A stretch of DNA of 61,258 nt, from positions 1 to 61,258 of the forward strand of contig JBFMFP010000001.1 of the NCBI GenBank assembly GCA_040751885.1. Reading direction: 5' to 3'. This document shows positions 11,808 through 48,980 of this stretch, in pieces. This stretch comes from Nanobdellota archaeon (GTDB lineage Archaea > Nanobdellota > Nanobdellia > Woesearchaeales > GW2011-AR9). Position numbers and translations under genes: made by a program. Every line of letters begins with the position of its first letter. The first letter of the stretch is position 1. The notes beneath the pieces are model-generated. The model saw only the letters and a list, made by a program, of their open reading frames with translations. It was not told the origin of the DNA and made no database searches.

Positions 11808-13208
11808 ATGCTTGACAAAGGAGCCTGTTTGAGATTCTATAAAAGGAAGGACATTCAGGAAGCTATAGTTGCGCATGCCCGGAATAAAGAAGTCGGGACG
11901 CGTTACGGAGATACTTTCGGCAAAAGGCCGGATGCGCTTTCTTATCCTCAGGAGATACTTAATTTGGCCATGCAGGGGGTAACTTCCTTTCACTGCAGCG
12001 AAGAGTTGTGGGAGAATCCTCTTTTTCTGGGCAGCAACTCCAGCAGGAAGGAGCTGGATGAGCTGCGCATCGGCTGGGATTTAGTGCTGGATATAGACTG
12101 CGCGATTGTTGATTACAGCAAAATATGTGCGGATTTGATTATTAAATTCCTGAGATACAATGGTGCTGAAGATATCTCCCTGAAATTTTCCGGGAATAAA
12201 GGGTTTCATATAGGGATTCCTTTTGAGGCTTTTCCAAAGCAGGTAGGCAATTCTCTGACCAAAAATCTCTTCCCGGAAGCGTCTAAGAAAATTGCCCTCT
12301 ACATTAAAGAAAACATTAAAAGGGAGCTGGCCAGAAGGATAATGGAATTTGAAAATAACGATTTTACTGCCGTGAGGCAGAAAGTGGGCTTAGACAAAGG
12401 AGGCATCATTTGCTACGAGAAAAATGAGTTTGGCGACAATGTCCCGCTGCTTGACGTAGAGCCGTTCTTAGGAATAGACACTATTTTGCTTTCTTCCCGC
12501 CATTTGTACAGGATGCCCTATTCTTTGCATGAAAAGTCCGGGCTGGTAAGCCTGCCCATAAGCCCGGATAAAGTCATAGATTTCAGCAAAGAGATGGCTA
12601 AGCCGGAAGTAATATTAACACCTATGTTTGAATTTCTCTGCCGGGAGGTGAGCAGGGAAAGTGCACGAGAACTGCTCATCAAAGCCATGGATTTTGAAGT
12701 TAAAGTAAAAGAGGACAAAGCCCGTGAGGAATTCTCTGAGAAGCATAAGCATAATAAAGACAGAAATTTTGAAGAGTTTAAGATTGAGAGTCCAATCAAA
12801 GAAGAGTTTTTTCCGCCATGCATTAAAACAGTTCTCAAGGGCATGGAGGACGGAAGGAAAAGGTCCGTCTTTGTGCTGATGAATTTTCTGGGCAAGCTCG
12901 GCTGGAGCAGGGAAGAAATTGAAGCTTATTTGCATAAATGGAACAAGGAAAAAAACAGGGAATCCTTGCGGGAAGTTTACATCAAAGGACAGATGAGCAA
13001 TTTTAAAGGTGATAAGTTACCGCCCAACTGCAATAATGAAGCTTATTACAAAGGGCTGAGGATATGCACTCCCGACAGTTTATGTACAAAAATAAAAAAT
13101 CCTGTCAATTATACTCTTTTGAAATGGAAAAGGTGGCTGAGGGAGAAGGAAGAAGGGGAAGGGAAAAAGAAAAAAACTTTAAAGACGTCGGTGAGAGCGT
13201 CTTCCTAA
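11808..13208 (+). CDS. Fused archaeo-eukaryotic primase: PriS catalytic domain plus PriL-like 4-Cys C-terminal domain
   Basis: WDLVLDIDC and SGNKGFHIGIPF are primase catalytic motifs. The C-terminal part has FPPCI plus three further Cys (PPNC, RIC, SLC) with PriL Fe-S-like spacing. Confidence 0.8.
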   Translation: MLDKGACLRFYKRKDIQEAIVAHARNKEVGTRYGDTFGKRPDALSYPQEILNLAMQGVTSFHCSEELWENPLFLGSNSSRKELDELRIGWDLVLDIDCAIVDYSKICADLIIKFLRYNGAEDISLKFSGNKGFHIGIPFEAFPKQVGNSLTKNLFPEASKKIALYIKENIKRELARRIMEFENNDFTAVRQKVGLDKGGIICYEKNEFGDNVPLLDVEPFLGIDTILLSSRHLYRMPYSLHEKSGLVSLPISPDKVIDFSKEMAKPEVILTPMFEFLCREVSRESARELLIKAMDFEVKVKEDKAREEFSEKHKHNKDRNFEEFKIESPIKEEFFPPCIKTVLKGMEDGRKRSVFVLMNFLGKLGWSREEIEAYLHKWNKEKNRESLREVYIKGQMSNFKGDKLPPNCNNEAYYKGLRICTPDSLCTKIKNPVNYTLLKWKRWLREKEEGEGKKKKTLKTSVRASS

Positions 13209-23333: not shown

Positions 23334-23561
23334 GCCAGCGTCGCATGCACAGAAATAGATTAAGATTTCTGGTCGCGACTCGGCATTACCATGCCAGCGT
23401 CGCATAATCTGGTACTTTGCGTAAGCAAAGGTTTACGCGAAGCGGAAAATTGCGCAGGTCTTGAAGCAGCTTTAAGAAAGTCGCATCAAAATGGCGGTTA
23501 AAGCCACCTAAAAGTAAACCTGTCCCTTCGGGGATTCTCGGTTCAAATCCGAGCGCTGGCG
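23334..23561 (+). tRNA. tRNA-Ser(UGA), class II, with at least 2 introns and a duplicated 13-nt 5' end
   Basis: After removing about 33 nt (~23417-23449, D-loop/D-stem boundary) and 23466-23516 (37/38), the sequence reads GCCAGCG-TC-GCA-TAATCTGGTAC..-TGC-G-CAGGT-CTTGAAA-ACCTG-TCCCTTCGGGGATT-CTCGG-TTCAAAT-CCGAG-CGCTGGC-G. GCCAGCGTCGCAT occurs at both 23334 and 23393. Confidence 0.7.
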
Positions 23562-28488: not shown

Positions 28489-28836
28489 TTAATCTAAGCC
28501 CAAACTTACTTTTATTGCCAAATTGATTCTGCTTATTAAATGATTATCCAAAGAGCCAATTCTTTTTGTAATTCTCGATTTGTCAATGGTTCTTATTTGA
28601 TTTAATAAAATTGTTGAATCCATATTTAAGCCCGATTCTTTTTTTAGAATTGTAACATTGGTGGGAAATTCTTTGGTAAATATTTTTGAAGTGATAGGAG
28701 CAATTACCGTTGTAGGAGAATATTCATTCCCAAAATCATTTTGAAGAACAACCGCAGGCCTTGTTCTGCCCTGCTCACTGCCTATTACAGGGCCTAAATT
28801 TACTAAAATTATATCTCCTCTTTTTATTTTAATCAA
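28489..28836 (-). CDS. mazF: MazF/PemK-family endoribonuclease toxin
   Basis: IKRGDIILVNLGPVIGSEQGRTRPAVVLQND. Confidence 0.85.
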   Translation of the reverse strand: MIKIKRGDIILVNLGPVIGSEQGRTRPAVVLQNDFGNEYSPTTVIAPITSKIFTKEFPTNVTILKKESGLNMDSTILLNQIRTIDKSRITKRIGSLDNHLISRINLAIKVSLGLD

Positions 28837-29159: not shown

Positions 29160-29421
29160 TGCCCCGGCCGGGAATTTCACAGATGTCACGCAAATGTCAC
29201 GCCATTTGACAGGCGGAGCCTACGCTTCGCTTCGGCACAGATGTCACGCCGTTGGAGAGGCGAGGGCATGCATCTGCTTTGAACCCGGGTCACTGCCTTT
29301 CCTTGGATTTCTCTCTCGAAAGGGCAGTATGATAGTTTATCCTCCGGTAAACCCCAGAGATATGGGATTTCACGCGGTTTGTCCCTGATTTAACAATCAG
29401 ACCGGACTACACCACCGGGGC
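29160..29421 (-). tRNA. tRNA-Glu(UUC) with three introns (D-loop, 37/38 and T-loop 59/60)
   Basis: Minus-strand read: GCCCCGG-TG-GTGTAGTCCGGTC[~65 nt]TATCAT-A-CTGCC-CTTTCG[18 nt]A-GGCAG-TGAC-CCGGG-TTCAAA[104 nt]T-CCCGG-CCGGGGC-A. Confidence 0.8.
29174..29277 (-). other. T-loop (59/60) intron, family 1, in tRNA-Glu
   Basis: The junctions form CCGGG/UUCA/AAG/CAGAUG...CAUCUG/UGAA/AUU/CCCGG, a canonical bulge-helix-bulge. The core is homologous to 44804-44917 and 33298-33427. Confidence 0.75.
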
Positions 29422-29499
29422 GTTATTATCCCTGAAAAAGGATTGGTTTAAAAAAGTTTCCACAAATCTTATAAAATTAGGGTATGAATTATAATAACT

Positions 29500-29856
29500 A
29501 TGGCTGAAAAAGTAATTCTTGGTCTGACTGAACCGGTGAAAATAAAAGGGCGTGAAGGAAGAAATGCAGATATTATCGCCAGAATAGATACCGGGGCAAC
29601 TTCTTCATCAATTGACATGCGGCTGGCTGAAGAGCTTGGGCTGAAACAAATACCGCGCTCAAAAGTTGTAAAATCAGCTTCCGGTGTTAAAAAAAGGTCG
29701 TTGGCGAGGGCAAGAATAATTATCAAGGGAATGGAGATAGAAGAAGAGTTTACTTTAGCTGACCGCAGCCAGATGACTTACAAGATGCTTATTGGCCAGA
29801 ATATCCTCAGAAAAGGAAGCGTCCTTATTGACCCCTCTCTTAATGTAATAAAATAA
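29500..29856 (+). CDS. Retropepsin-like aspartic protease (RimK-associated, DUF785-type)
   Basis: ARIDTGATSSSID motif, directly upstream of a rimK-like gene. Confidence 0.7.
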   Translation: MAEKVILGLTEPVKIKGREGRNADIIARIDTGATSSSIDMRLAEELGLKQIPRSKVVKSASGVKKRSLARARIIIKGMEIEEEFTLADRSQMTYKMLIGQNILRKGSVLIDPSLNVIK

Positions 29857-34185: not shown

Positions 34186-34370
34186 TGCGGCTGCCGGGAC
34201 TTCCAAGCTGCAACTATTTAGCTCGGTGGGCTTTATGCCCGCCATACTCGCCTAGATTGCTGGCTTTTGAACCCGGGTCACAGCCTCTCTGCGTAAGCAG
34301 AAAATAAAGCTTATCAATATTCTTTCTGCTCTTGGCAAGGCCGCATCTTGGACCACTGGACTACAGCCGC
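34186..34370 (-). tRNA. tRNA-Gly(GCC) with a 37/38 intron and a 66-nt T-loop intron
   Basis: GCGGCTG-TA-GTCCAGTGGTCCAAGAT-G-CGGCC-TTGCCA[~46 nt]A-GGCTG-TGAC-CCGGG-TTCAAA[66 nt]T-CCCGG-CAGCCGC-A. Confidence 0.8.
34200..34265 (-). other. T-loop (59/60) intron, family 2, in tRNA-Gly
   Basis: AGCCAGCAATCT..AGGCGAGTATGGCGGGCATAAAGCCCACCGAG..TTGCAGCTTGGAAG, homologous to 44577-44698. Confidence 0.75.
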
Positions 34371-44562: not shown

Positions 44563-44786
44563 CGGGCCGGAAGGGACTTTCAAGCTGCAATTCTAATTTA
44601 CGCGGCGGGCTTCATGCCCGCCCTACTCGCCTATCCTCAGAAATACTACGCATTTCTGGGATGTTACAAATCTGATGATTTGAAACAGATTGCTGGCTTT
44701 TGAACCCTCGACCGCTTGATTGCTTTCCTTAAGTTACTTTTTTCAGTTAAAAGTCAAGCGCTCCAGCCAAGCTGAGCTACCGGCCC
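44563..44786 (-). tRNA. tRNA-Lys(UUU) with a 37/38 intron and a 122-nt T-loop intron
   Basis: GGGCCGG-TA-GCTCAGCTTGGCTGGAGC-G-CTTGA-CTTTTA[~27 nt]A-TCAAG-CGGTC-GAGGG-TTCAAA[122 nt]T-CCCTT-CCGGCCC-G. Confidence 0.8.
44577..44698 (-). other. T-loop (59/60) intron, family 2, in tRNA-Lys
   Basis: Same ends and core as 34200-34265, with an extra ~55-nt internal insertion. Confidence 0.75.
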
Positions 44787-45630: not shown

Positions 45631-45983
45631 AAACAGTTTATAATTTCCTAAATTCCCAGAGTTTTAGGGATTAGTATGTCAAAAATGGCTGAAATCTGTT
45701 TTTGCTGTTTGGTCATTTCTTGTGTCACAAGTTCTGTATCGTAGACTTTGCATTTGAGGTTTCTCATTGGTAACGACTGTAAAAATTTTCGGGTGTCTAA
45801 CGGCTTGGCTTAAAAAGAAAGCCAAGAATGTTGTAGAACTAGCTGAGATACTCAATAAACAGGTGTTTGTTAAAAACGCAAAAGCTTAAAATTAAGAAAC
45901 TTTTAAATAAGAGGCTTAATAAACAACACAAAGGTAAACAACACACAACACAAAGGTAAACAACACAAAGTAGGGGAGTGCAT

Positions 45984-48980
45984 ATGAACGAAGAACAAAG
46001 CGAACAGCGGATTGGACCTCCAGCCGAATTAAAAAAAATTAATGATACTACCTGGGAGCTACCTGCTTCTTATAAGAAAGGCATGCGTGTTCCTGCGCGG
46101 ATTATTGCTACTGAAGAGCTAATTAAAGCTATGGATAATGGCGTGTTTAACCAGATCAGCAACGTAGCAACTCTTCCAGGCATTCAAAAGTATGCTTTCT
46201 GCATGCCCGACGGGCACTGGGGCTATGGGTTCCCAATAGGTGGAGTGGCGGCATTTGACCCGGAGGAGCAGGGGATAATCTCTCCGGGAGGAATAGGTTT
46301 TGACATAAATTGTTTAGTTAAAGGCTCAAAGATTTTAACGGATTTCGGTTATTTAAAACCCGTTGAAGATTTTGAAACGGAGTTTGTAGATGTTGATATC
46401 CCCTATTCTTTTTACTCTTTGAAATTACAAAAGTGTATGCAATCCCTTCTTTCTTTTGATACCAATAAAAAATCCTTCTCTTCTAAAAGCATAGGTTATT
46501 TTATGAAAAAAAAACAGGCTGGTTCAATTCTCCAAATTAAAAGCAATTTAGGATACGTTATTGAAGTCACTGAAGACCACCCTATCTTAACTAAAGAAGG
46601 AATGGTGGAAGCAGGGAGGTTATCTAAAAGCCAGGAAATTGCAATTTATCCTTACGAAGGAGTTTCCTACGAATGTTTAGATGAAGTTATGTTAGTTGAT
46701 GACCAAACCCTTTTTACAAAACAGGAAAAAGAGGAATTAGTGAAAAGGAATCTTTTTCCGTTGAGTATTAAAAATGAAAAACTACCCATATTAACAAAGC
46801 TGTTTGGTTACCTGCTCGGTGATGGTCAAATATATTTCTCCGGGAAGAAAGGGTTTGTTTGTGCTTATGGGGCAGAGGAGGATTTAAAAGAGATACAAAA
46901 AGACATAAATAAGTTGGGTTTTTCAGCAAATATTTATGGGCGTGAAAGAGAACATTCAATTCCAACAAAATATGGACTAGTCAGATTTTCTAACAAGAAC
47001 TTTGAATTGCATACTTCCTCAAAATCCTTGGTTAAGTTATTTTTTGCTTTAGGCTACCCAAATGGCGTAAAAACAAATGTTCCTTTTGTTGTTCCCGAGT
47101 GGATAATGAATTCACCATTATGGATTAAGCGGCTTTTTTTATCAGGATTGTTTGGGGCTGAGTTATCAAAGCCGAGAACCCATACTAAAACCGGGTTTGA
47201 CTGTCCAACCTTTTCCCAGAATAAGAACACCCTCCTCTTGGAAAATGCTAGGTATTATTGCATTCAAATCATGAAATTGCTTGAAGAATTTGGTGTTAAC
47301 ACCCATAAACTTCTTGTAAGAGATGATTATTCGAATCGCTACAGAAAAACTAGCCGGTTAAAGCTACAAATCTCTTCAGAAGAAGAAAATTTGTTAAAAT
47401 TGTGGAGTAAAATAGGGTTTAGTTACAATCAAAAAAGGGAATTATTATCGCATATTGGTATAATTTACATCAAAGAAAAAAAGATTCTAACACAAAAACG
47501 TAAAGAAGTTGCTCAGAAAATTGAAGAATACAGAAAGAAAGGATTGAAATTAACCGAAATTCAAAAGTTATTGCTGTCGCCAATTACTAATGAAAGGTTT
47601 ATTACAAGGCATTTTTATGAGCAAGCTGATTATAGGATTCATTTAGATTTTCTTTCATTTAATTCTTTTGTAAAGTTAAAAAAGGAGCAATACGATGAAT
47701 ACGGTTGTTTTTTTGATGCCGTAGAAGCAGTCACTAAGAAAGAATATGATGATTATGTTTATGATTTTAATATTCCAGAAACTCATAATTTCATTGCGGG
47801 AAATGTAATTGTTTCCAATTGCGGCATGCGCTTAATTACCACCAATTTAACGGTCAATGAAGTTAAGCCAAAGATAAAAGAACTGGTTGATGCTCTTTAT
47901 CAGCAGGTTCCCGCCGGGGTGGGCTGCAAGGGTTTTGTAAAACTGAGCAGGCAGGAGTTTAGGGAAGTGATGAAAGAAGGGGCGCAATGGTGCTTTAACT
48001 ACGGCTATGCTACGCAATCGGATATAGAGCATATAGAAAGCCGGGGCAAAATTCCCGGAGCTGACCCTTCCAAAGTTTCTGACAAGGCAGTTAAAAGAGG
48101 GTTTGACCAGCTGGGCACTTTGGGAAGCGGGAACCATTACTTAGAAATTCAGGAAGTCAAAAAAGAAAATATCTTCAATAGGGAATGGGCAAAAGTAATG
48201 GGCATAACTAAGTCCGGGCAGATAGTCATTATGGTCCATTGCGGCTCCCGGGGCTTTGGGCATCAGATAGGAACAGACTATTTACGGACATTTTTAGACG
48301 TGATGCCCAAGTATGGTATTGAGATTCTTGATAAAGAGCTTGCCTGTGCGCCATTTAATTCTGCAGAAGGGCAAGCGTATTATGCGGCCATGGCCTGTGC
48401 AGCAAACATGGCTTTTGCCAACAGGCAGGTGATACATCAGAGGATAAAAGAAGTGTTCAGCAAAGTATTTGCAAAGACAGCTGAAGAGATGGAAATAAAC
48501 CTTGTTTACGACGTAGCCCACAACATCGCCAAGCTGGAAAAGCACATTATTAACGGCAGGGAAAAAGAATTATTAGTGCACAGAAAAGGGGCCACCCGTG
48601 CCTTTGGTCCGAAAAGGGCAGCTGAGCTTCCTAAGAAATATGCTCAGATTGGGCAGCCGGTGATTTTAGGCGGAAGCATGGAAACTGGCTCGTATCTTTT
48701 GCTGGGAACAGATGGAGCTGATGACACTTTTGCCTCTACTGCCCATGGCGCAGGAAGGACGATGAGCCGGGCAGCAGCAAAGAGGACAGTAAGAGGGGAG
48801 CAGCTACAGAAAGAGATGGAAAAACAGGGGATATATGTGCATAGTGTAACCATGTCTGGATTAGCAGAAGAAGCCGGAAAAGCGTATAAAGATATTGAAG
48901 CGGTAGTGGATTCGTTGGAAATTGCAGGGATTACCAAAAGAGTTGTCGCTTTGAAGCCGATAGGGAATGTGAAAGGGTAA
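45984..48980 (+). CDS. rtcB: RtcB tRNA-splicing ligase interrupted by an intein
   Basis: The PGGIGFDIN / CGMRLITTN halves of the RtcB metal-binding motif are separated by 503 aa. The C-terminal RtcB blocks (GSRGFGHQ, HRKGATRA, STAHGAGR) are intact. Confidence 0.95.
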   Translation: MNEEQSEQRIGPPAELKKINDTTWELPASYKKGMRVPARIIATEELIKAMDNGVFNQISNVATLPGIQKYAFCMPDGHWGYGFPIGGVAAFDPEEQGIISPGGIGFDINCLVKGSKILTDFGYLKPVEDFETEFVDVDIPYSFYSLKLQKCMQSLLSFDTNKKSFSSKSIGYFMKKKQAGSILQIKSNLGYVIEVTEDHPILTKEGMVEAGRLSKSQEIAIYPYEGVSYECLDEVMLVDDQTLFTKQEKEELVKRNLFPLSIKNEKLPILTKLFGYLLGDGQIYFSGKKGFVCAYGAEEDLKEIQKDINKLGFSANIYGREREHSIPTKYGLVRFSNKNFELHTSSKSLVKLFFALGYPNGVKTNVPFVVPEWIMNSPLWIKRLFLSGLFGAELSKPRTHTKTGFDCPTFSQNKNTLLLENARYYCIQIMKLLEEFGVNTHKLLVRDDYSNRYRKTSRLKLQISSEEENLLKLWSKIGFSYNQKRELLSHIGIIYIKEKKILTQKRKEVAQKIEEYRKKGLKLTEIQKLLLSPITNERFITRHFYEQADYRIHLDFLSFNSFVKLKKEQYDEYGCFFDAVEAVTKKEYDDYVYDFNIPETHNFIAGNVIVSNCGMRLITTNLTVNEVKPKIKELVDALYQQVPAGVGCKGFVKLSRQEFREVMKEGAQWCFNYGYATQSDIEHIESRGKIPGADPSKVSDKAVKRGFDQLGTLGSGNHYLEIQEVKKENIFNREWAKVMGITKSGQIVIMVHCGSRGFGHQIGTDYLRTFLDVMPKYGIEILDKELACAPFNSAEGQAYYAAMACAANMAFANRQVIHQRIKEVFSKVFAKTAEEMEINLVYDVAHNIAKLEKHIINGREKELLVHRKGATRAFGPKRAAELPKKYAQIGQPVILGGSMETGSYLLLGTDGADDTFASTAHGAGRTMSRAAAKRTVRGEQLQKEMEKQGIYVHSVTMSGLAEEAGKAYKDIEAVVDSLEIAGITKRVVALKPIGNVKG
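46311..47819 (+). mobile_element. Intein with a LAGLIDADG homing-endonuclease domain (503 aa)
   Basis: Starts with Cys (CLVKGSKIL) and ends ...HNFIAGNVIVSN, followed by the extein +1 Cys. Two LAGLIDADG-like motifs (LFGYLLGDGQ, FLSGLFGAE). Confidence 0.9.

Follow-up and report, generated by a model that had tools for sequence, protein, structure and literature searches.

A probable paralogous family of bulge-helix-bulge introns at position 59/60 of tRNA genes in a Woesearchaeales genome

Results

Two tRNA genes with related T-loop inserts

The DNA analysed here, referred to as the window, is the 61,258-nt contig JBFMFP010000001.1 of a metagenome-assembled genome (MAG) of the Woesearchaeales, which measures 1.42 Mb in 142 contigs, is 94% complete and has a GC content of about 40%. 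Two tRNA genes of the window, tRNA-Lys(UUU) and tRNA-Gly(GCC), are interrupted in the T-loop by inserts that resemble each other closely and that probably belong to one family of protein-spliced introns of the bulge-helix-bulge (BHB) kind. The genome is called G000 below; other G numbers denote genomes (relatives), C numbers contigs (the window is C1) and L numbers sequences from other MAGs or metagenomes, and all data derive from MAGs. The window also codes for a split RpoB, RpoA', a fused PriS-PriL primase, FttA and an intein-bearing RtcB. The features of the two genes are as follows:

44563..44786, minus strand: tRNA-Lys(UUU) gene, 224 nt, with two introns; called Lys(ttt) by ARAGORN once the T-loop insert is removed
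44577..44698, minus strand: T-loop intron of tRNA-Lys, 122 nt, between A59 and U60
44633..44686, minus strand: nested insert of the Lys intron, 54 nt, with two hairpins, GUUUCAAAUC-AUCA-GAUUUGUAAC and CCAGAAAUGCGUAGUAUUUCUGAGG
44604..44622, minus strand: central hairpin of the Lys intron, GGCGGGC-AUGAA-GCCCGCC, a C-G pair replacing the usual C.A mismatch
44721..44747, minus strand: canonical 37/38 intron of tRNA-Lys, 27 nt, boundary ambiguous by one A, unrelated to the 37/38 intron of tRNA-Gly
34186..34370, minus strand: tRNA-Gly(GCC) gene, 185 nt, with two introns; called Gly(gcc) by ARAGORN once the T-loop insert is removed
34200..34265, minus strand: T-loop intron of tRNA-Gly, 66 nt, between A59 and U60; 98.7 bits with the covariance model R1 (see below)
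34225..34243, minus strand: central hairpin of the Gly intron, GGCGGGC-AUAAA-GCCCACC, with the conserved C.A mismatch of the family
34287..34332, minus strand: canonical 37/38 intron of tRNA-Gly, 46 nt

Both inserts lie precisely between A59 and T60, and the original prediction, made from the sequence of the window, had placed them and their shared ends correctly to the base. Read in the sense of the tRNA they start with AGCCAGCAATCT and finish with TTGCAGCTTG(A/G)AAG, and they have AGGCGAGTA(G/T)GGCGGGCAT(G/A)AAGCCC(G/A)CC in common. The Lys insert corresponds to that of Gly with a hairpin-forming block added between AGCCAGCAATCT and AGGCGAGT, for which about 55 nt had been proposed and which measures 54 nt (44686..44633). 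Without this block the two inserts are identical at 60 of 68 positions (88%), as compared to 67% for the mature exons and 46% for the 37/38 introns. In a search of the whole genome with an nhmmer profile of the family the Gly and Lys copies were found with E = 5e-19 and 3e-9, respectively, and the likeness between the two is therefore far beyond chance. Segmental duplication of a whole tRNA gene, which had been dismissed because the flanking exons differ, is ruled out as the origin of the pair by the 67% exon identity and the unrelated introns at 37/38. Removal of the T-loop insert lets ARAGORN call both tRNAs, each with its 37/38 intron.

It is extremely unlikely that the two genes are pseudogenes or products of mis-assembly, from which the inserts are never removed. 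Such a view could draw on the many contigs of the MAG and on the failure of standard tRNA finders, but each gene is the sole one for its anticodon in the 94% complete assembly, where no second gene for Lys(UUU) or Gly(GCC) was found, its exons are intact and fold into a cloverleaf, and compensatory changes maintain the BHB motif described below in about 70 copies from about 25 independent assemblies.

Six copies in one genome and a second, unrelated family

ARAGORN found zero tRNAs in the unmodified window, and the Rfam tRNA model found one, with five above its cut-off in the entire assembly. As the standard finders are nearly blind here, almost every tRNA gene must be interrupted in a manner that lies beyond their reach. 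Since so few genes were recovered in this way, tRNA genes were located with a purpose-written scan for T-arm and acceptor sequences. This gave about 27 tRNA genes, 18 of them with an insert at 59/60: six belong to the family of the Lys and Gly introns (family 2), about eight to another 59/60 family of the same genome (family 1) and four or five are singletons of 20–86 nt.

Where the original prediction knew of two copies of family 2, genome-wide searches with the nhmmer profile and with R1, a covariance model of the family, returned six full members, in tRNA-Lys(UUU), tRNA-Gly(GCC), tRNA-Phe(GAA; C122), tRNA-Met/Ile2(CAU; C126), tRNA-Thr(CGU; C121) and tRNA-Arg(UCG; C72). All six occupy site 59/60 in one orientation, and the profile search of G000 found no copy outside tRNA genes. 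Introns far more alike than the exons around them, in several types of tRNA, are one mark of a paralogous intron family; copies at differing intron positions are another, and here the full copies are confined to 59/60. A second tRNA on C126 has the hairpin module alone in its intron at about 53/54, and tRNA-Ser(UGA) of the window has a shorter version in its 37/38 intron. Within G000 the closest pair is formed by the Gly and Phe introns, which are mutual best matches at 88%. More generally, the G000 introns are 78–88% identical to their best matches among those listed, other G000 copies included.

The claim that a second family without sequence relationship fills the same site was also borne out, as the family-2 nhmmer profile matched no family-1 copy even at E <= 10. 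Family 1 consists of a repeat, CAGATGTCACGCCATCTGAGAGGCGAA / CAGATGTCACGCC..., found in either orientation in the 59/60 introns of several G000 tRNAs. It is like family 2 in site, in having several host tRNAs and in its 3' end (YGRA plus two bases ahead of U60), but the intron interior has no detectable similarity, the copies lie in both orientations rather than one, and family 2 is set apart by a defined rod-like fold.

Some further peculiarities of the tRNA genes of G000 were seen. Several genes are preceded, 46–170 nt upstream, by a second copy of their own first 8–15 bases (the acceptor, sometimes with the start of the D-arm); this is the case at 23334-23405 and around 29410-29597 of the window, around 25113-25234 of C121 and around 1314-1388 of C88. 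At C121 the interval between acceptor copy and tRNA gene contains a family-1 repeat. At G000:C137:3524-3758 it is the 3' end of a tRNA (CCGGGCAGGCCCA) that has a second copy, about 140 nt downstream of the gene, which resembles an attachment-site duplication. A MazF/PemK-type toxin gene (28489-28836 of the window) lies about 300 bp from a triply interrupted tRNA-Glu(UUC).

Splice motif and intron fold

The copies conform to a strict 3-4-3 hBHBh' motif to which the tRNA contributes its T-arm. The central helix H joins T54-A57 (UUCR) to intron bases -6 to -3 (YGRA), and the two 3-nt bulges are A58-A59/i1 and NN/U60, the slash standing for the exon-intron boundary. In the canonical BHB motif the cut falls after the second bulge base, and the same position is assumed here. 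Helix h is the 5-bp T-stem, which is 98% paired, whereas h' is GC(C)/(G)GC and is followed by GCAA/UUGC and a further stem, P2. For the two genes of the window the motif reads:

Lys intron: H is UUCA paired with UGAA; bulges AA/A and AG/U; h is the T-stem
Gly intron: H is UUCA paired with UGGA; bulges AA/A and AG/U

On average 3.57 of the 4 positions of H are paired in the 65 copies compared, 45 of which have the helix complete, while shifted registers gave 1.2–2.3. Exon and intron covary at position 57, as A57 is met by U in 27 copies and G57 by C in 17, next to five G.U and one A.C combination (Fisher p = 4e-8, a value for which related copies are not independent). Further compensation within H includes a change of U55 to C matched by A to G, and UCCG/CGGA variants. 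In the tRNA-Met/Ile2(CAU) of G000 (C126:1233-1424) and of MAG CAZKNU (L100), T-loop position 54 is a C (CTCAAA), which leaves a C.A mismatch in the H helix of the 59/60 intron. An inner helix AAGC/GCUU, the one preferred by minimum free energy folding and by RNAalifold, was rejected as the splice motif as it cannot give a 7-nt T-loop; the UUCA/UGRA register was preferred because it gives such a loop and covaries.

The intron itself folds into a rod. When 70 distinct copies were aligned to R1, 90.9% of the cells were paired, against 30–50% in slid controls, and 19 of the 23 pairs had changes on both sides. P2 covaries as whole variants (CAAUCU/AGAUUG, UUACAC/GUGUAA, UAACCU/AGGUUA and UAUCCU/AGGAUA). 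Folding z-scores were -5.7 for the Lys T-arm with its intron and -3.95 for the Gly counterpart. In the Lys fold the 54-nt block appears as two additional hairpins at the P2 junction, and neither P1 and P2 nor the central hairpin is disturbed by it.

Covariation had been suggested as a check on the central hairpin, and the outcome differs along its length. The top pairs covary, for example from C-G to U-A in 23 copies, and the tip varies from 5 to more than 30 nt; the lower stem (GG-C-GGG / CCC-A-CC), on the other hand, is kept in sequence, with the C.A mismatch in 56 of 69 copies. Conservation of this kind, next to a P2 and a tip that covary or change length, raises the question whether the core, made up of a single-stranded AGGCRAGU and the C.A-mismatched GGCGGG/CCCACC hairpin, serves as a functional RNA or protein-binding element under selection, with tRNA introns as one of its vehicles. 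It would fit that intergenic DNA of other MAGs contains the core with neither T-arm nor 3' half, and that introns at other positions, those of the second C126 tRNA and of Ser(UGA) in the window, have similar hairpins. We nevertheless regard this explanation as distinctly unlikely. Gathering-threshold and E-value scans of both loci against Rfam matched no group I, group II or C/D model, apart from a chance-level C/D snoRNA match on the opposite strand (E = 0.67, 17 bits with a cut-off of 40), and no kink-turn, C/D boxes or H/ACA boxes were seen by eye. Moreover, the core is confined to tRNA introns in G000, orthologous tRNAs manage without it, and a function would leave the origin of the copies unexplained.

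Splicing enzymes

The genes expected to serve the removal of such introns are present:

45978..48980, plus strand: RtcB tRNA-splicing ligase with an intein, 1.2 kb from tRNA-Lys, the expected joiner of the exons
G000:C70, Pfam matches at 12723-13208 (outside the window): EndA gene, single copy, 259 aa

EndA consists of one N-terminal and one catalytic domain, and no second EndA subunit was found in G000, from which an alpha4-type enzyme is inferred. An N-terminal extension of about 85 residues, a low-complexity stretch with much Lys and Glu, precedes the two domains. Two 3-nt bulges around a 4-bp helix, the flanking h and h', the restoration of the tRNA by removal of the insert and the coding capacity for EndA and RtcB together mark the inserts, on the evidence of their sequence, as strict BHB (hBHBh') introns that would be excised from RNA.

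Orthologous sites in related genomes

Of 36 sister genera from the GTDB family of G000, 14 gave a family-2 match with R1, run with the strict filters of Infernal, and these 14 are scattered over the RpoA' tree; in 24 other families of the order that were sampled R1 detected none. A pattern scan of species-representative genomes added about 60 copies from about 25 Woesearchaeales MAGs, a set biased towards the P2 variant CAAUCU; its 10 matches outside the group (nine bacterial and one from Nitrososphaera) were not confirmed by R1. Public records that carry the intron are labelled Woesearchaeota, Nanoarchaeota or Nanoarchaeia (DPANN Woesearchaeales). The host tRNAs have at least 15 different anticodons. 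One sequence from MAG JACPIL (L077, bases 55-270) contains a tRNA gene (acceptor GGACCCA) with three inserts that stops after the 5' half and hairpin of a family-2 intron; the expected 3' part (..TCCGGGTGGGTCC) was found neither nearby nor elsewhere in the 0.9-Mb assembly, and the gene is either a truncated or a split tRNA.

The tRNA-Lys(UUU) gene adjoins the rpo operon in most genomes, which identifies the genes compared as orthologs. Among 38 of them (34 from sister genera and four from other MAGs) the T-loop is intact in 26, where it typically reads GAGGGTTCAAATCCCTT, i.e., the G000 flanks joined together. Among these 26 are CAZKNU and JBBSWB, the MAGs with the family-2 copies that resemble the G000 ones most. 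The remaining orthologs carry inserts at 59/60 that are either mutually unrelated, of at least seven kinds, or short and family-2-like, the latter in G003, G007, G017 and G020. In the RpoA' tree a cluster with support 100/99 unites G000, G019 and G011, and these three genomes have, at Lys 59/60, the family-2 intron with its block (G000), an unrelated 45-nt intron (G019) and no intron (G011). For tRNA-Gly(GCC) 13 of 15 orthologs have an uninterrupted T-loop, including that of G019, the closest relative examined for this gene; one of the other two has an unrelated 20-nt intron at 59/60 and the other an insert at another position of the T-arm. Presence and absence thus differ between orthologous genes of related genomes, as in a paralogous intron family. 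With most orthologous sites empty and with differing states in the nearest relatives, the copies in Lys and Gly are, as far as sequence comparison can tell, lineage-specific gains from a paralogous donor. P2 variants that are specific to a genome across its different tRNAs point the same way: all copies of G020 have UUACAC (TTACAC) and most of those of G017 UAACCU (TAACCT).

The alternative is ancient vertical inheritance from an ancestor with family 2 in most T-loops, followed by many losses and replacements, with the likeness within genomes due to concerted evolution (gene conversion). The scatter of the 14 positive genera over the tree and the short family-2-like introns in Lys(UUU) of four relatives are in keeping with it, and so is the Met(CAU) intron of G000, which has its best match (87%, and mutual) in the orthologous Met(CAU) intron of CAZKNU and shares with it the loop UUUUCAA. 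It would, however, require loss from all of the empty Lys and Gly orthologs, the nearest relatives included, each time with restoration of a perfect T-loop; unrelated sequences fill the same site of the same gene in other genera; and R1 matched nothing in the 24 other families sampled. For the Lys and Gly genes we therefore consider common descent unlikely. The original prediction, which saw repeated targeting rather than vertical inheritance, is upheld as regards the repeated occupation of the site and has to be modified in two respects. The Met(CAU) copy looks vertically inherited, and active homing may not be needed, as recurrence would call only for a site at which a strict BHB motif can form with any tRNA.

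The 54-nt block and the stand-alone cores

The block of the Lys intron is absent from the other five family-2 copies, and there is no other copy of it in G000. Similar intergenic sequences exist in other families of the order (G263, G115 at three places, and G370), with 80–87% identity to the block over 40–60 nt and E-values per genome down to 3e-8. More than 20 genomes have further copies of the second hairpin of the block (CCAGAAAUGC-GUA-GCAUUUCUGAGG), one of them in the 37/38 intron of a tRNA-Ile(GAU). In metagenome contigs the first hairpin is the centre of a hairpin-rich repeat of about 200–250 nt that exists in many copies and is bounded by the terminal inverted repeats GTCAA(A/G)AACCACC ... 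GGTGGTT(T/C)TTGAC, and which thus resembles a miniature inverted-repeat transposable element (MITE). Copies of this MITE-like repeat are found at:

L237, L238, L239, L241, L244, L245, L248 and L249 (metagenome contigs)
L188 and L194 (G115)

The block is accordingly a captured fragment of the MITE-like repeat, acquired at the DNA level. A metagenome scan for the junction of Lys T-arm and intron, intended to reveal alleles without the block, gave zero matches. Inside the MITE-like repeat a perfect palindrome, CAGAAATGC-GTA-GCATTTCTG, is kept across several families of the order.

Outside T-loops the 5' half of the family-2 core with its hairpin was seen in L049, L063, L095 and L103 (Woesearchaeales MAGs) and in L037 (G017:C12), in all cases without the 3' half. 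In L049 it forms two tandem 99-nt units, in L063 a direct repeat of about 38 nt flanks it, in L095 and L103 it lies just downstream of a small NAC/UBA-like gene and in L037 about 40 nt after tRNA-Leu. These stand-alone cores could be donors or debris of the intron family. There is an outside chance that the core (GCCAGCAATCT-AGGCRAGT-GGCGGG..CCCACC) is an independent small element, also residing in intergenic DNA, which seeds tRNA introns wherever a BHB motif can form.

Discussion

A probable paralogous intron family specialised for the T-loop

We consider it likely that the Lys and Gly inserts are two members of one paralogous, protein-spliced BHB intron family that is specialised for site 59/60 and has spread by copying. 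In the precursor tRNA the T-stem would act as h, and T-loop bases 54-57 (UUCR) would pair with the YGRA located two bases before the 3' end of the intron to give the 4-bp H, leaving A58, A59 and the first intron base in one bulge and the last two intron bases with U60 in the other. Helix h' (P1) would be formed by the two ends of the intron and be extended by P2 and the central hairpin, so that a rod holds the splice sites together. The single alpha-type EndA is then expected to cut after A59 and before U60, and RtcB to join the exons. Because the tRNA side of the motif consists of the T-loop, which is nearly universal, the same intron fits any tRNA. Site 59/60 of the T-arm may moreover be regarded as the counterpart of 37/38 in the anticodon arm, since in either arm a 5-bp stem carries a 7-nt loop and the site comes after the sixth base of that loop, and this geometric equivalence can account for the recurrence of unrelated introns exactly at 59/60.

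The family presumably spreads by copying at the level of DNA, i.e., with an intron-bearing T-arm as donor in ectopic recombination or gene conversion, and the Lys copy would afterwards have acquired its 54-nt fragment of a MITE-like repeat, which is tolerated because it folds apart from the splice motif. Copying of DNA is favoured because of this repeat fragment, the occurrence of family 1 in both orientations and the intergenic stand-alone cores. The same three observations speak against mobility of the RNA, in which an excised and probably circular intron re-enters another T-loop by reversal of the endonuclease and ligase reactions, guided by UGAA:UUCA pairing, and is then reverse transcribed and recombined into the genome. 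The exon-binding bases of the intron do pair with a sequence present in every tRNA, the six G000 copies share orientation and exact site, and G000 has two RVT_1 reverse transcriptase domains (C120:3001-3855 and C111:245-862, one of them within an open frame of 1768 aa). These may, however, be of the type found in diversity-generating retroelements, whose reverse transcriptases are common in DPANN archaea, and we know of no report of a reversal of EndA and RtcB. RNA mobility was also unsupported in a recent survey of Asgard archaea (bioRxiv 10.64898/2026.10.13.758758), and altogether it appears very unlikely here.

Several points weigh against the copied, protein-spliced family proposed above. 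First, the alignment of the copies (A3) was fitted to R1 and is biased towards the structure of the model. Second, alpha4-type EndAs are classically thought to be limited to introns at the canonical position, although the motif in question is strict. Third, the species tree is based on a single protein (RpoA') and on one genome per genus. Fourth, some copies, such as that of Met(CAU), are apparently inherited. Fifth, no copying machinery was found in G000, where TnpB and free-standing LAGLIDADG or GIY-YIG proteins were sought and the neighbours of the tRNA genes are ordinary. Sixth, the flanking homology at the disposal of gene conversion is merely about 10 and 5 nt.

Two other routes of spread were considered. 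An origin from a transposon, a MITE or a palindrome-associated transposable element inside G000 was rejected, as this genome has no TnpB, only a relic of TnpA and no copy of the intron outside tRNAs. Spread driven by a homing endonuclease is unsupported, as all LAGLIDADG matches lie inside open reading frames of 735–1006 aa and no GIY-YIG match was obtained; one of these matches is the RtcB intein and the other two are probably inteins as well. The TnpA relic, a C-terminal part of an IS200-type Y1 transposase (..FWSAGYFHRTAG..) with a hairpin after it, is found at a contig end (G000:C90:9647-9739), and the assembly contains neither an intact TnpA nor an intact TnpB.

Comparison with known systems

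Site 59/60 is a recognised non-canonical position for archaeal tRNA introns. Such introns are carried by the pre-tRNA-Cys(GCA) and pre-tRNA-Pro(GGG) of Candidatus Micrarchaeum ARMAN-2, where that of tRNA-Cys is cleaved in vitro by an archaeal splicing endonuclease and where a pair of introns at 53/54 and 59/60 of one T-loop has been described as well (Fujishima et al., 2011, PMC3239211). G000 shares with ARMAN-2 the T-loop site, the BHB kind of motif and the DPANN host, with cleavage demonstrated in ARMAN-2 and predicted in G000. The ARMAN-2 introns, on the other hand, are short (13 nt in tRNA-Cys), have a relaxed hBH motif and are served by an epsilon2 enzyme, as opposed to 66–122 nt, a strict 3-4-3 motif, a multi-copy sequence family and a single alpha-type unit in G000.

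Alpha4-type EndAs in DPANN lineages have been linked to more disrupted tRNA genes (Kaneta et al., 2018, PMC5829648), and with its inferred alpha4-type EndA and heavily disrupted tRNA set G000 is like these lineages; an L3 loop is a feature of the enzymes of that study. The passages of Kaneta et al. (2018) referred to here describe neither intron families nor a predominance of 59/60.

The interruption of T-loops explains why standard tools recover almost no tRNAs from genomes such as G000. Introns at 59/60 with a BHB motif and intron families extending over several tRNAs are both known kinds; what is new is the lineage, the Woesearchaeales, for which a literature search found no description of such families. 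To our knowledge, the Thermoproteales are the only well-known case of tRNA intron copying. Intron families that span tRNA types were described there (Fujishima, 2010, Mol Biol Evol 27:2233, as cited in PMC4090602), and they make up 28% of the intervening sequences in Thermoproteales as compared to 1.5% in Asgard archaea (bioRxiv 10.64898/2026.10.13.758758). How introns arrive was unknown according to a review of 2014 (PMC4090602) and is still open according to the 2026 preprint, which did not find a general route to intron acquisition in its survey of Asgard archaea (10.64898/2026.10.13.758758).

As far as the cited account of the Thermoproteales goes, the parallels to G000 are close: near-identical introns occur across tRNA types in one genome, their distribution among relatives is patchy, the mechanism is thought to operate on DNA, and the need for a BHB motif limits where copies persist. 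G000 differs in that it is a DPANN member of the Woesearchaeales with a genome of about 1.4 Mb and 40% GC, in that all six copies are at one site with ends matched to the T-loop, in that the family can be traced with covariation over about 25 MAGs, and in the nested repeat fragment of one copy. The family of the Woesearchaeales is thereby the cleaner system, with one fixed site, a strict motif on a universal T-loop, about 70 covarying copies, syntenic genes that offer exact orthologous sites, filled and empty, across sister genera, and a single alpha-type endonuclease. The Lys case shows that a tRNA intron can acquire a fragment of a dispersed DNA repeat, and this fragment and the pieces of intron core outside the tRNA genes of relatives are leads to donors and to a DNA-level mechanism. 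If the core is indeed an independent element, it would, together with the MITE-derived block, provide the first traceable donors for archaeal tRNA introns.

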